NCBI RefSeq assembly: GCF_016026235.1
Contig: NZ_CP065613.1
Length of the DNA: 64,000 nucleotides
Source: Escherichia coli
GTDB lineage: Bacteria; Pseudomonadota; Gammaproteobacteria; Enterobacterales; Enterobacteriaceae
Direction: 5' to 3' (one strand)
The notes under the pieces were generated by a model. It saw nothing but the letters and a program-made list of their open reading frames with translations. It ran no database searches and had not been told where the DNA came from. Made by a program: the position numbers and the translations under genes. Shown one piece after another: positions 34,314 through 35,672 of this stretch. How positions within the stretch are numbered: the stretch's first letter is position 1; the number at the start of each line of letters is the position of its first letter.

Positions 34314-34339
34314 GAGATAAAAAAGGCCGGAGCATGCTC

Positions 34340-35634
34340 CTGAGGGATCCCCAGAAAATTTAGTAAACCATTATCATATTGGTATACCGTTGCTGTAGAA
34401 CTTTCAGCCCTGCGTCAAGTGACAGTGTGTTTAGTATGAGTGGAGAATGTCGAATCACATTCTCCGCCAGTTTTAATAACGAGATGACTCGCCTGTGCTT
34501 CACTGTATTTGCCTGATATTTATGATGTATCCCTTTGTTTTCCAGGCTGAAACCGCTTAACCACATAATGATACTGGCTAATGTTGCGATCAGACTCAAT
34601 ACCGTGACCCGCCCAGATGAATGACTGGCACCAAACCGTAGTCCAAATCCCCAGCGAGGATTTTTTTCATCCCTGAAATTTTGCTCAATTTGCATTCTAC
34701 GGCTGTATAATTTCATTACCTGTTTTGGCGAGAACTCAGTACTGTTTGTGAAAATAAACCATGGTGATTTCCCGGCAGTACGAGCTTTAGCCGTCACCGA
34801 TGGTCTGGTTGCTCTTTCCTTCGAGCGTTTAAATCTACGACCTTTAGGCTTACTTTTATAAAGATAAAAATGCCCTTCATGTTGTGCATTTTTATCTCGA
34901 CCCAGCAGGCCTTCACCTAAATAAATTGCTGTCGTTGATGCTTTTGTGCCTGAGTCCGACACCTTTTCCCAGCCATTACCAACATTGTAATAATGATTGC
35001 CCAGTACCCGGCAAATATAGGTCCAGCCACGGGAGCGGAGCTGTTGGAACCATCGCCCCTGAAAACCGGCATCTGTAATAACAATGACATCAGTCCCGGG
35101 GGAAAAGCACTCAGCAAGCGATTCCAGAAAACGCTCATGTACATCTGCATTCGCTGTCTGTGATGATGGAACGACACAACTCATCAACGGTAAAGAACGC
35201 CCGTCACATGCCAGGCTTGCCCGCAAAAGCTGAAAACGAGAGGCATGATAAGCACTCCAGTCAATGAGTATCACAACACGAGACATTCCCCGCGTAATCT
35301 TTTGGGTAATTCGCTGAAAAATGGTGGAAACCTCATTTTGCAAATGTCGATTCCCCAACAGTCGATCCACCCGCTTTATTTTGTTTTTAACTGATGCCGT
35401 ACCGGTTAAATGACGCCCGATACTGGTAAGTGTGAGGGAAGCGCCATTTATTACAGCATTAGTTGCGTCAATCAGTGATTTTTGACGGTAAAGATGCAAA
35501 GGGGCCAGTATGTTGTTAAGGAAATTTTGGCATAATGAACGTGCAGGCATAGTGGTGATCTCCTTGAAATTGTTAGCACAATCAATTAGATCACATCTCA
35601 CTATGCCTGTCTTGTTTTCTGGGGATTCCTCAGG
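34340..35634 (-). mobile_element. IS10-like insertion sequence (IS4 family), copy 1, about 1.29 kb
   Basis: Terminal inverted repeats ctgagggatccccagaaaa / ttttctggggattcctcag; single transposase ORF; flanked by a 9-10 bp direct duplication (a)gcatgctc(c) of the target; near-identical to the copy at 55406-56700. Confidence 0.85.
34360..35550 (-). CDS. IS10-like (IS4-family, DDE) transposase
   Basis: About 396 aa from MPARSL...; clear similarity to the IS10/Tn10 transposase as I remember it (KRVDRLLGNRHL, IEQNFRDEKNP, HHKYQANTVKHRRVISLLKLAENVIRHS); start chosen about 84 nt inside the element end. Confidence 0.8.
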   Translation of the reverse strand: MPARSLCQNFLNNILAPLHLYRQKSLIDATNAVINGASLTLTSIGRHLTGTASVKNKIKRVDRLLGNRHLQNEVSTIFQRITQKITRGMSRVVILIDWSAYHASRFQLLRASLACDGRSLPLMSCVVPSSQTANADVHERFLESLAECFSPGTDVIVITDAGFQGRWFQQLRSRGWTYICRVLGNHYYNVGNGWEKVSDSGTKASTTAIYLGEGLLGRDKNAQHEGHFYLYKSKPKGRRFKRSKERATRPSVTAKARTAGKSPWFIFTNSTEFSPKQVMKLYSRRMQIEQNFRDEKNPRWGFGLRFGASHSSGRVTVLSLIATLASIIMWLSGFSLENKGIHHKYQANTVKHRRVISLLKLAENVIRHSPLILNTLSLDAGLKVLQQRYTNMIMVY

Positions 35635-35672
35635 AGCATGCTCCGGCCTTCGTTTTCATCACTGTGTTTTGA

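Follow-up and report, generated by a model that had tools for sequence, protein, structure and literature searches.

An ISEc60 insertion within the predicted bidirectional terminator between yjgN and valS of Escherichia coli

An IS10-like element lies between yjgN and valS

The window, a stretch of 64,000 nucleotides from contig NZ_CP065613.1 of the Escherichia coli assembly GCF_016026235.1, contains the convergent genes yjgN and valS and, between them, a complete insertion sequence with an intact transposase gene (Table 1). The assignment of yjgN as a pseudogene is based on its two in-frame ORFs, their translation and the 'internal stop' annotation in E. coli FDAARGOS_943. Inverted repeats and empty-site comparison agree in placing an IS10-like element where a preliminary description of this DNA had located one. 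The inverted repeats are 19 bp long, and a count of the 19-mer in the window gave 4, compared to 0.01 expected by chance. The duplications on either side of the element match exactly, and the flanking DNA shows no other interruption.

Table 1. Positions of the features at the yjgN–valS locus and of the second ISEc60 copy within the window
Feature	Position	Strand	Remarks
yjgN	33090..34313	plus	convergent with valS; pseudogene, in-frame stop 33867-33869
Split terminator, left half	34319..34339		A-run, arm GGCCGGAG, loop, CTC
Target duplication GAGCATGCTC, left copy	34330..34339		10 bp; loop CATG with 3 bp from either arm of the stem
ISEc60 copy 1, complete	34340..35633	minus	1,294 bp; IS4 family, IS10-like; ends from inverted repeats and empty-site comparison
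Inverted repeat CTGAGGGATCCCCAGAAAA, transposase-distal end	34340..34358	plus	contains a GATC (Dam) site
Transposase gene, intact	34360..35550	minus	396 aa plus stop; single ORF from the ORF list
Sole difference between the copies	34615 A vs 55681 G		TCT/TCC on the coding strand, both Ser, silent
Conserved hairpin over the transposase translation start	35543..35613	plus	candidate RNA-OUT-like antisense RNA on the plus strand
Inverted repeat CTGAGGAATCCCCAGAAAA, transposase-proximal end	35615..35633	minus	no GATC
Split terminator, right half	35634..35656		GAG, loop, arm CTCCGGCC, TTCGTTTT
Target duplication GAGCATGCTC, right copy	35634..35643		10 bp, palindrome
valS	35673..38528	minus	upstream of and co-directional with the transposase gene; ORF and FDAARGOS_943 annotation
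ISEc60 copy 2	55406..56699	minus	same length and orientation as copy 1
Copy 2 duplication GGGAAAACCA	55396-55405 and 56700-56709		10 bp, perfect

Over its full length, copy 1 is 99.9% identical to copies annotated in RefSeq as 'IS4-like element ISEc60 family transposase', and the encoded 396-aa proteins are identical; the window copies are thus the same element as ISEc60. This is the name used in NCBI/RefSeq annotation, where IS elements are named after ISfinder. In the literature searched, ISEc60 was scarcely mentioned, for example as an entry in a mobile-element table.

The sequence alone leaves the boundary of the element ambiguous, because all ISEc60 duplications begin with G: it can be drawn as 1,294 bp plus 10 duplicated bp or as 1,295 bp plus 9. 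The second form, which had been described earlier, is less likely, since both ends read CTGAGG, as in IS10, and only with a 10-bp duplication does the GGGG-N4-CCCC target consensus fall in the centre; where the spacer is 5 bp, the duplication is 11 bp. The place of the element stands, and its extent is revised to 1,294 bp with the 10-bp duplication GAGCATGCTC.

ISEc60 belongs to the IS4 family and resembles IS10

Members of the IS4 family encode a DDE transposase in a single ORF, with a Y(2)R(3)E(6)K motif around the catalytic glutamate, and duplicate about one helical turn of target DNA, approximately 9-12 bp (PMC2266710). The ISEc60 transposase is a single-ORF DDE protein that matched Pfam DDE_Tnp_1 (E 1.8e-20, 74 bits, cut-off 23) and the NCBIfam IS4 equivalog transpos_IS4_2 (360 bits, cut-off 152). 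The YREK motif is readable in its translation as Y-SR-R-MQI-E-QNFRDE-K and aligns to RMQIEETFRD of IS10A. Both window copies have 10-bp duplications, and among other ISEc60 copies whose duplications still match, the length is 10 or 11 bp. A PDB sequence search with the transposase yielded no Tn5 or IS50 match, and returned two chance matches only.

Within the family, the ends of IS10 and IS50 are 5'-NT and, together with those of ISPepr1, preferentially 5'-CT, whereas other subgroups, including IS231, have 5'-CA ends (PMC2266710). Both termini of ISEc60 start with 5'-CTGAGG and so carry the 5'-CT of the IS10 subgroup. The transposase shares 36% identity with its counterparts in IS10A and in ISVsa5, with E values from about 1e-64 to 5e-76; the IS10A alignment extends along the whole protein, over 372 aa, and has the E of 5e-76. 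IS10 (IS10R/IS10A of Tn10; IS4 family, IS10 subgroup) likewise has a single DDE transposase, and its ends match those of ISEc60 at 15 of 19 positions, with 5'-CTGA termini. Both elements also show the same GATC/AATC asymmetry, GATC being present in the transposase-distal end only. The closest differently named relative is ISSfl1, an IS4-family element of a Shigella flexneri plasmid, which is a different element with 51.6% full-length transposase identity. IS10 is about 1,329 bp long, compared to 1,294 bp for ISEc60, and generates a 9-bp duplication at targets of the NGCTNAGCN type. ISEc60 departs from this IS10-type target and duplicates 10-11 bp at (G)GGG-N4-CCC(C). The ISEc60 annotation and the Pfam, NCBIfam and IS10A matches point to no other family and support the original assignment of the element as IS4-family and IS10-like.

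The second copy is an independent insertion

Copy 2 has its own duplication and is an independent insertion. A full comparison of the two copies upheld the report of near-identical, directly oriented elements differing by a single silent substitution, and revealed no substantial divergence. At the position equivalent to 34615, G is present in six of eight further copies that were compared, and also in the copy at the same valS site in the draft assembly GCA_031665325.1; A is found in L009 and L010, a variant with 14 differences from copy 1. On these alignments, the A is judged to be a private change, which gives copy 1 one private silent base relative to the annotated ISEc60 copies.

The interval between the copies comprises valS, holC, pepA, ytgA, lptF, lptG, yjgR, idnRTODK and ahr, together with genes for tRNA-Leu and an integrase and part of a disrupted RT gene. 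Two identical elements in direct orientation that bracket a segment have the arrangement of a composite transposon, or of a block imported with the 19.8 kb between them. We consider this scarcely credible and rejected it: each copy has its own matching duplication, the outer flanks differ (GAGCATGCTC and GGGAAAACCA), the interior is collinear with and 99.9% identical to the core E. coli gene order, and both sites were independently found empty. No case was seen in which the 21-kb unit occupied a different locus, bounded by one outer duplication. Because valS, lptF and lptG are known to be essential, deletion by recombination between the copies would be lethal, and of the 21-kb interval flanked by these direct repeats only duplication, not deletion, should be recoverable.

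Both sites are empty in the closest genome

Removal of the IS together with one copy of the duplication gives AAAAAAGGCCGGAGCATGCTCCGGCCTTCGTTTT, exactly the sequence that had been predicted, and this is the actual empty site in FDAARGOS_943. This strain has the closest genome, in which the flanks of the site are collinear and 99.9% identical. The copy 2 site is empty in FDAARGOS_943 and in many other E. coli, and neither insertion occurs in any of 5,426 complete E. coli genomes (0/5,426). These data bear out the proposal that transposition was recent. The valS-site insertion is common to one NCBI draft assembly, GCA_031665325.1, with the same junctions and 1 mismatch in 7,191 bp. Absent from the complete genomes and, at valS, shared with this draft, the insertions are good lineage markers.

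In the lineage, ISEc60 has expanded to dozens of copies at unrelated sites. Since insertion sequences commonly cause misassembly, so many copies raise the question of whether a repeat was wrongly placed at valS by the assembler. This is most improbable in light of the exact 10-bp duplications, the otherwise unbroken and syntenic flanks and the recurrence of the same junctions in an independent NCBI assembly, on which grounds we rejected an artefact. We conclude, with a probability of about 0.88, that the known element ISEc60 (IS4 family, IS10-like) entered the valS site recently and by simple insertion. It is an ordinary, strain-specific insertion of an element that is itself already known and, as one more insertion of a named IS expanded in its lineage, matters little by itself.

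Elsewhere in the window, positions 1-4612 appeared rearranged relative to FDAARGOS_943. The difference is really an inversion in FDAARGOS_943, beside IS600, and the window keeps the usual E. coli gene order.

The insertion splits a predicted bidirectional terminator

The midpoint of the copy 1 duplication coincides exactly with the dyad axis of a 20-bp GC-rich palindrome, GGCCGGAGCATGCTCCGGCC, which in other E. coli lies between the convergent yjgN and valS and is flanked by an A-run and a T-run. On the empty site, a terminator scanner called a terminator on both strands, with the hairpin between the yjgN and valS stop codons. On the valS strand, 11 pairs (7 GC) are followed by TTTATCTCTT; on the yjgN strand, 10 pairs are followed by CGTTTTCATC. 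The empty site thus combines a GC-rich stem-loop, a T-run on each strand and convergent genes, as predicted for an intrinsic bidirectional terminator, and the preliminary description was right to place the insertion in such a palindrome.

Folding of the empty-site hairpins gave -27.6 and -20.9 kcal/mol. A scan of both IS junctions returned no terminator call. At the left junction only a 4-bp stem is left (z about +0.8 versus shuffled sequence), and RNA transcribed from valS across the other junction is no more stable when folded than shuffled sequence (z 0.01). These predictions, with stable hairpins at the empty site and junctions close to shuffled sequence, agree with the suggestion that termination of the yjgN and valS transcripts is altered. 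By parting the terminator arms by 1.3 kb, the insertion would abolish termination at this point in both directions. With junctions that have no predicted terminator, valS transcription should continue into the IS, with the same sense as the transposase gene. Any effect on yjgN would be immaterial, since that gene is a pseudogene in any case. Useful reports of IS insertion into terminators were not found in the literature searched.

We also considered selection for the insertion on account of altered valS or antisense expression, brought about, for example, by an outward-facing IS promoter. To judge from IS10, a promoter of this kind may be present at this end of the element, and the terminator placed to protect valS against it has been split. 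Nevertheless, valS is convergent with the outward promoter and could only be opposed by it, not activated, yjgN is already a pseudogene, and the many ISEc60 copies at unrelated sites in the lineage are what neutral expansion predicts. Selection is therefore a very unlikely explanation of an insertion that we regard as ordinary.

The terminator fits the target preference of ISEc60

ISEc60 duplicates 10 bp, sometimes 11 bp, at targets of the form (G)GGG-N4-CCC(C). In 31 distinct left flanks, many of them from one metagenome series, the four successive G positions are occupied by G in 27, 31, 27 and 27 cases and, after N4, three C positions by C in 30, 25 and 25 cases. At valS the match to this form is partial but symmetric (GGAG-CATG-CTCC). 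When empty sites were reconstructed, at least six consecutive complementary pairs were centred on the duplication in 10 of 25, compared to 0.4% of random positions; the remaining 15 are not clear hairpins. Clade-wide, full complementarity between the outer 3 bp on the two sides of the 10-bp flank occurs in 31% of flanks versus 1.7% of controls. Other ISEc60 copies lie in terminator-like hairpins, for example L140 (aaaaaaaCCGGGGAATTATCCCCGGctttttt) and L008 (GGCGGGGAAAATCCCCGCCttttt).

It could be argued that the element reached the terminator by chance, with no site preference. The window offers just two insertions, both at sites that only partially match the target consensus and so depart from its best form, and the copy 2 site forms no clear hairpin; the window also holds seven perfect GGGN4CCC sites, all of them unoccupied. 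Set against the near-invariant GGG...CCC pattern in the 31 independent flanks, the 40% of reconstructed sites that are duplication-centred hairpins (0.4% in controls) and the further copies in terminator-like hairpins, an accidental hit is improbable. The flank comparisons strongly support the view that the valS-terminator site is not accidental and fits the ISEc60 target preference. They give equally strong support to the view that elements with the same ends are often located at the apex of GC-rich hairpins, the tops of intrinsic terminators looking like targets. Given the GGG-N4-CCC preference and the landing of the clade at hairpin apices, a terminator hit is to be expected. As 15 of the 25 reconstructed sites are not clear hairpins, the preference may be for the GGG/CCC sequence and not for hairpin structure.

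Symmetric targets of the GGG/CCC kind are shared with other members of the IS4 family. IS231A prefers GGG(N)5CCC and makes 10-12 bp duplications, and IS186 prefers G runs and C runs with a short spacer between them. The consensus target of IS186 is the subject of a paper that appears as reference 14 in PMC3045373, and insertion specificity is described for IS231 elements, with IS4-family duplications of about 10 bp (PMC2266710). The literature searched yielded no useful reports on the IS231A target. Relatives that have the inverted repeats of ISEc60 occupy repeated GC-rich palindromes, such as CCCTCTCCCttgAGGGAGAGGG, in Serratia, Kosakonia, Pragia, Xenorhabdus and an Enterobacteriaceae MAG. 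The insertion sequences known to target REP elements mostly belong to other families (IS3, IS110).

A conserved hairpin covers the transposase start

On the minus strand, the hairpin at 35543..35613 is predicted to bury the ribosome-binding site and the AUG of the transposase gene, and is a candidate for fold-back inhibition. Its folding energy is -38.3 kcal/mol (z -7.0) for the minus strand and -39.2 kcal/mol (z -6.7) for the plus strand, and six covarying pairs occur among 25 relatives. The Rfam RNA-OUT model (RF00240) scored 16.8 bits on ISEc60 (E 7.3), which is below the gathering score of 41 and insignificant alone; IS10A, as the positive control, scored 85.9 bits. Conversely, a model built from the ISEc60 clade found the true RNA-OUT of IS10A at 340-408, with identical coordinates (23.3 bits, E 7e-5). 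As in IS10A, an inverted repeat spans the start codon. The candidate antisense stem-loop covers the beginning of the transposase gene, and its 5' end falls a short way into the coding sequence, at a distance that is the same in the two elements: 7 nt past the A of the ATG (35543 versus 35550 in ISEc60, 408 versus 401 in IS10A). We accept the RNA-OUT analogy because the IS10A positive control and the reciprocal clade model agree. Collectively, the profile matches and geometry suggest that the ISEc60 leader hairpin is likely a distant RNA-OUT homologue, although not a member by the Rfam rule.

A consensus promoter scan of the transposase-proximal end gave no candidate for pIN or pOUT. By eye, we noted a weak pIN candidate, AAGACA-17-TCTAAT (35613-35585, minus strand), and a weak pOUT candidate, TGgCATAAT (35528-35536, plus strand). 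GATC overlaps the candidate -10 upstream of the transposase gene, just as it overlaps the -10 of pIN in IS10.

Like IS10, ISEc60 would move by DDE cut-and-paste. RNAs that read through from valS would carry the 5' arm (35589-35611) of the leader hairpin, which could pair with the ribosome-binding site and AUG and block transposase translation, as in the fold-back inhibition described for IS10. Transcription of the same inverted repeat from the opposite strand would give an RNA-OUT-like antisense RNA of about 70 nt. By this analogy, fold-back inhibition of read-through transposase mRNA is predicted, and the valS locus becomes a natural test of whether the leader hairpin buffers the loss of a strong terminator upstream of an IS10-like transposase gene.

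Elements that share the ends of ISEc60

A wider reading joins the target preference to the leader hairpin; we put it forward tentatively and think it more doubtful than probable. The clade of IS10-like elements with ISEc60 ends would home to the apex of GC-rich, dyad-symmetric hairpins, that is, intrinsic terminators and REP-like repeats of the (G)GGG-N4-CCC(C) type, and make a 10-11 bp staggered cut. Such hairpin sites would be harmless and intergenic, yet would lie directly in the path of read-through transcription, which a conserved IS10-type fold-back and RNA-OUT module would neutralise. No description of hairpin-apex or GGG-N4-CCC targeting in the IS10 group was found in the literature searched. 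If absent from ISfinder, the target preference would help to predict where elements of the clade land; it would also explain the erosion of terminators and palindromic repeats by these elements. Elements that share the 19-bp ends of ISEc60 include transposase-less derivatives of 200-770 bp in Pragia, Serratia and Photorhabdus.

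ISEc60 inserted twice, and independently, in the window

The element between yjgN and valS (copy 1, 34340-35633) and a second copy at 55406-56699 encode a 396-aa transposase that matches Pfam DDE_Tnp_1, scores far above the cut-off of the NCBIfam IS4 equivalog and, as read from the translation, contains the Y(2)R(3)E(6)K motif by which PMC2266710 defines the IS4 family. In a set of 5,426 complete E. coli genomes, megablast with the element returned 99.9%-identical full-length copies annotated 'IS4-like element ISEc60 family transposase'. These matches bear out the IS4/IS10-type assignment made in the preliminary description, and by this annotation the element is an already named, known IS, ISEc60. 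A near-full-length copy was found in only 14 of the 5,426 genomes. In the closest complete genome, FDAARGOS_943, about 38 places match ISEc60. Several copies, on chromosome and plasmids, occur in an EIEC-type clone (CFSAN029787 and relatives), and the exact transposase protein is recorded in many public assemblies.

The ISEc60 transposase is 51.6% identical to that of ISSfl1 and 36% identical over 372 residues (E 5e-76) to that of IS10A. The ends of ISEc60 and IS10A agree at 15 of 19 positions, both elements have GGATC (a Dam site) in the transposase-distal end and GAATC in the transposase-proximal end, and ISEc60 shares the 5'-CT termini of the IS10, IS50 and ISPepr1 subgroups (PMC2266710).

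The inverted repeats of copy 1 are imperfect and 19 bp long, and the same pair encloses copy 2; the 19-mer end occurs four times in the window, against 0.01 expected by chance. Since 5'-CTGAGG is read at both ends, the element measures 1,294 bp, and its 10-bp duplication is GAGCATGCTC for copy 1 and GGGAAAACCA for copy 2. The copies had rightly been given equal lengths, and only their boundary is adjusted by these symmetric ends; the other reading, 1,295 bp with a 9-bp duplication, arises solely because all duplications of ISEc60 begin with G and is the less likely one.

Aligned with their flanks, the copies are identical from first to last IS base except in one column, A at 34615 versus G at 55681 (TCT versus TCC on the coding strand, both serine), and they are direct repeats because the transposase ORF lies on the minus strand in both. 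The full alignment thus agrees with the earlier picture of near-identical copies in direct orientation, one silent base apart. Copy 1 and copy 2 are each bracketed by a matching duplication of their own, the outer flanks are unlike, and between the copies lie 19.8 kb of core genome with the usual gene order: valS, holC, pepA, ytgA, lptF, lptG, yjgR, idnRTODK, ahr, the genes for a tRNA-Leu and an integrase and, at the end, part of a broken RT gene. On these grounds we regard the copies as two independent simple insertions; the separate duplications, differing outer flanks and core-genome interior rule out a composite transposon. If the direct repeats recombined, valS, lptF and lptG would be lost; all three are essential in E. 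coli K-12, so the proposal that such a deletion would probably be lethal is reasonable. Duplications of the interval would still be possible.

Copy 2 truncates a UG5 RT-nitrilase defence gene (within 52669-57534), which loses its last ~45 codons; the PADLOC RT_UG5-nitrilase match spans positions 231-913 of the 958 in the profile. Another break in the RT gene lies farther upstream, between ORFs 52669-53217 and 53358-55409, and RTasTM, the partner gene (56845-57534), is intact. The island that holds this system also carries psu (polarity suppression) and has the integrase gene beside the tRNA-Leu gene, a layout that we take to resemble a P4-like satellite. An IS1-like copy at 58272-59047 (91% identical to IS1A) adjoins a 3' remnant left by another IS10-like element; the end of this remnant, ...ttcatggggatccctcag, reaches to 59357 and resembles the transposase-distal ends of relatives in Photorhabdus and Xenorhabdus.

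The insertion between yjgN and valS is recent and interrupts a predicted bidirectional terminator

FDAARGOS_943 is collinear with the window, with flanks 99.9% identical, differs in IS content and is empty at both loci. Its sequence between yjgN and valS, agatAAAAAAGGCCGGAGCATGCTCCGGCCTTCGTTTTcatc, is the exact product of deleting the IS and one duplication copy, just as the preliminary description had predicted. The bidirectional terminator proposed there was called on both strands of this site by a terminator scanner, with 11 pairs then TTTATCTCTT on the valS strand and 10 pairs then CGTTTTCATC on the yjgN strand; the RNA folds reached -27.6 kcal/mol (z -5.1) and -20.9 kcal/mol (z -2.8), respectively. 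Neither site was occupied, as a place covering at least 80% of the query, in any of the 5,426 complete genomes. The same valS junction was found in NCBI assembly GCA_031665325.1, over 7,191 bp at 99.986% identity; the ISEc60 copy of that assembly matches window copy 2 at 100%, so that the one mismatch falls on base 34615. G stands at the equivalent position in six of eight other copies compared, and the two with A belong to a variant that is 14 differences away from copy 1; the A at 34615 is a private change of copy 1.

From the empty FDAARGOS_943 site, the absence of occupied sites among the complete genomes and the GCA_031665325.1 junction, we conclude that the valS-site insertion is real, recent and lineage-specific. 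Our results confirm the reported IS in the predicted yjgN/valS terminator, with two direct copies, and its recent transposition; the event is an ordinary recent insertion of the named ISEc60.

In other respects, FDAARGOS_943 is inverted relative to window 1-4612, with the breakpoint at an IS600 beside ytfR, and the window keeps the usual order tamB-ytfP-ppa-ytfQ-ytfR there. The tRNA-Leu island of FDAARGOS_943 has an IS1A that the window lacks at 52965-52976.

ISEc60 prefers a symmetric GC-rich target

We compared 31 distinct left flanks of ISEc60-type ends (window, E. coli records and a metagenome scan). G occupies positions -11 to -8 in 27, 31, 27 and 27 flanks, respectively, and C occupies -3 to -1 in 30, 25 and 25; the target deduced from these flanks is therefore (G)GGG-N4-CCC(C). 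The duplication is 10 bp, or 11 bp where the spacer is 5 (retrieved loci L007 and L008). This differs from the 9-bp target of IS10, NGCTNAGCN.

The exact 19-bp end was found at 97 loci in species-representative genomes, including Photorhabdus, Xenorhabdus, Serratia, Kosakonia, Pragia, Arsenophonus, Erwinia dacicola, E. whittamii and E. coli E69, in ISs of ~1,298 bp and in 200-770-bp derivatives lacking a transposase gene. This wider clade likewise has duplications with dyad symmetry and GC-rich ends: in 31% of flanks, versus 1.7% of controls, the three outer pairs are all complementary. When 25 empty sites were reconstructed, 10 showed a run of six or more complementary pairs whose centre coincides exactly with that of the duplication (random positions 0.4%), and eight showed a run of eight or more (random positions 0.05%); several of these sites are canonical terminators, e.g. 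aaaagGGGCTTAGGCCCCtttt (L030), aaaaaaaCCGGGGAATTATCCCCGGctttttt (L140) and GGCGGGGAAAATCCCCGCCttttt (L008). The valS site, cGGAG-CATG-CTCCg, matches the target in part, and symmetrically, with 12 consecutive pairs around the duplication centre; the copy 2 site is a poorer match and has no hairpin. ISEc60 might recognize either the GGG/CCC sequence or an extruded structure; 15 of the 25 reconstructed sites have no clear hairpin, so that the preference may be for the sequence. The target preference is clear and explains the terminator hit, which the preliminary description had not done; together with the hairpin enrichment, it indicates that landing in terminators is a tendency of ISEc60.

Predicted loss of termination and a candidate IS10-type leader

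All that remains at both junctions is a 4-bp stem (GGAG....CUCC). The scanner called no terminator at either junction and the junction RNA folds no better than shuffled sequence, consistent with the altered termination that had been predicted. As valS is upstream of and co-directional with the transposase gene, valS read-through should reach that gene. On the other side, yjgN was dead before the IS arrived, since FDAARGOS_943 is annotated the same way, and given the in-frame stop already in yjgN its termination is of little consequence. Within the IS, a predicted terminator-like hairpin at 34440-34467 on the plus strand (11 pairs then CAGTTTTAAT; -20.4 kcal/mol, z -4.7), antisense to the transposase gene 3' end, could stop transcription arriving from the yjgN side.

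The first 90 nt inside the transposase-proximal end fold into a hairpin of -38.3 kcal/mol (z -7.0), which is kept in 25 related elements with six pairs changed on both sides. Read on the plus strand, the inverted repeat of this hairpin (35543-35613) precedes TCTTGTTTTCT and aligns end to end, below threshold (16.8 bits, E 7.3), with RNA-OUT (Rfam RF00240), the antisense RNA of IS10. In the IS10A control RNA-OUT scored 85.9 bits, its 5' end lying 7 nt downstream of the A of ATG, an offset equal to that of the ISEc60 candidate. A covariance model built solely from ISEc60-clade hairpins recovered the RNA-OUT of IS10A, with identical coordinates (23.3 bits, E 7e-5).

Neither of the two candidate promoters was called by the promoter scanner. 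With the inward one, whose -10 overlaps GATC at 35589-35592, the native mRNA would begin within the hairpin and its ribosome-binding site would stay free; the extended -10 could drive the antisense RNA. In IS10, fold-back pairing silences translation of read-through RNA. By analogy, it is plausible that read-through RNA is silenced in this way in ISEc60, and that an RNA-OUT-like antisense RNA would add further control. The folds and models provide evidence, beyond the preliminary description, for a candidate IS10-type leader and antisense module conserved in the ISEc60 clade; this module and the target preference are variations on known IS4-family/IS10 biology.

Coordinates of features at the valS site, and of short elements with the same 19-bp ends at retrieved loci (L numbers)
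Feature	Position	Strand	Remarks
Left inverted repeat, copy 1	34340-34358		CTGAGGGATCCCCAGAAAA
Right inverted repeat, copy 1	35615-35633	minus	CTGAGGAATCCCCAGAAAA
valS	35673-38528	minus	39 nt upstream of IS end, co-directional with transposase gene
In-frame stop in yjgN	33867-33869		in window and FDAARGOS_943; ORFs 33090-33869 and 33894-34313
Ribosome-binding site AAGGAG	35565-35560	minus	paired in leader hairpin
AUG of transposase	35550-35548	minus	paired in leader hairpin
5' arm of leader hairpin	~35611-35589	minus	pairs ribosome-binding site and AUG
Candidate inward promoter, weak	35613-35585	minus	AAGACA-17-TCTAAT, by eye
Candidate antisense promoter, extended -10	35528-35536	plus	TGgCATAAT, by eye
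Short elements, Pragia fontium	L049 2283-2559; L051 156-496; L053 186-463; L054 5052-5394		
Short element, Serratia	L065 280-483		
Short element, Photorhabdus australis	L064 929-1694		
Short element	L102 1633-2093		

Short derivatives and tandem pairs

The short elements look like non-autonomous (MITE-like) derivatives of the ISEc60 clade; those with both flanks matchable (L049, L053, L064 and L065) have 9-10 bp duplications inside GC-rich hairpins.

Tandem ISEc60 pairs occur at two different loci, L004 1-1595 (pCFSAN029787_01) and L138 1677-4274 (GCA_031665585.1). Both have the same 10-bp spacer, GGTAAATCCC, and at L138 a separate duplication, GGAAAATCCC, flanks the two copies together, which suggests that the ISEc60 dimer transposes as a unit. 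Some copies in GCA_031665585.1 and GCA_031665325.1 (L138, L141 and L143) have non-matching flanks; the mismatch at L138 is explained by the tandem pair, and those at L141 and L143 are as expected from recombination between copies (IS-mediated rearrangement).
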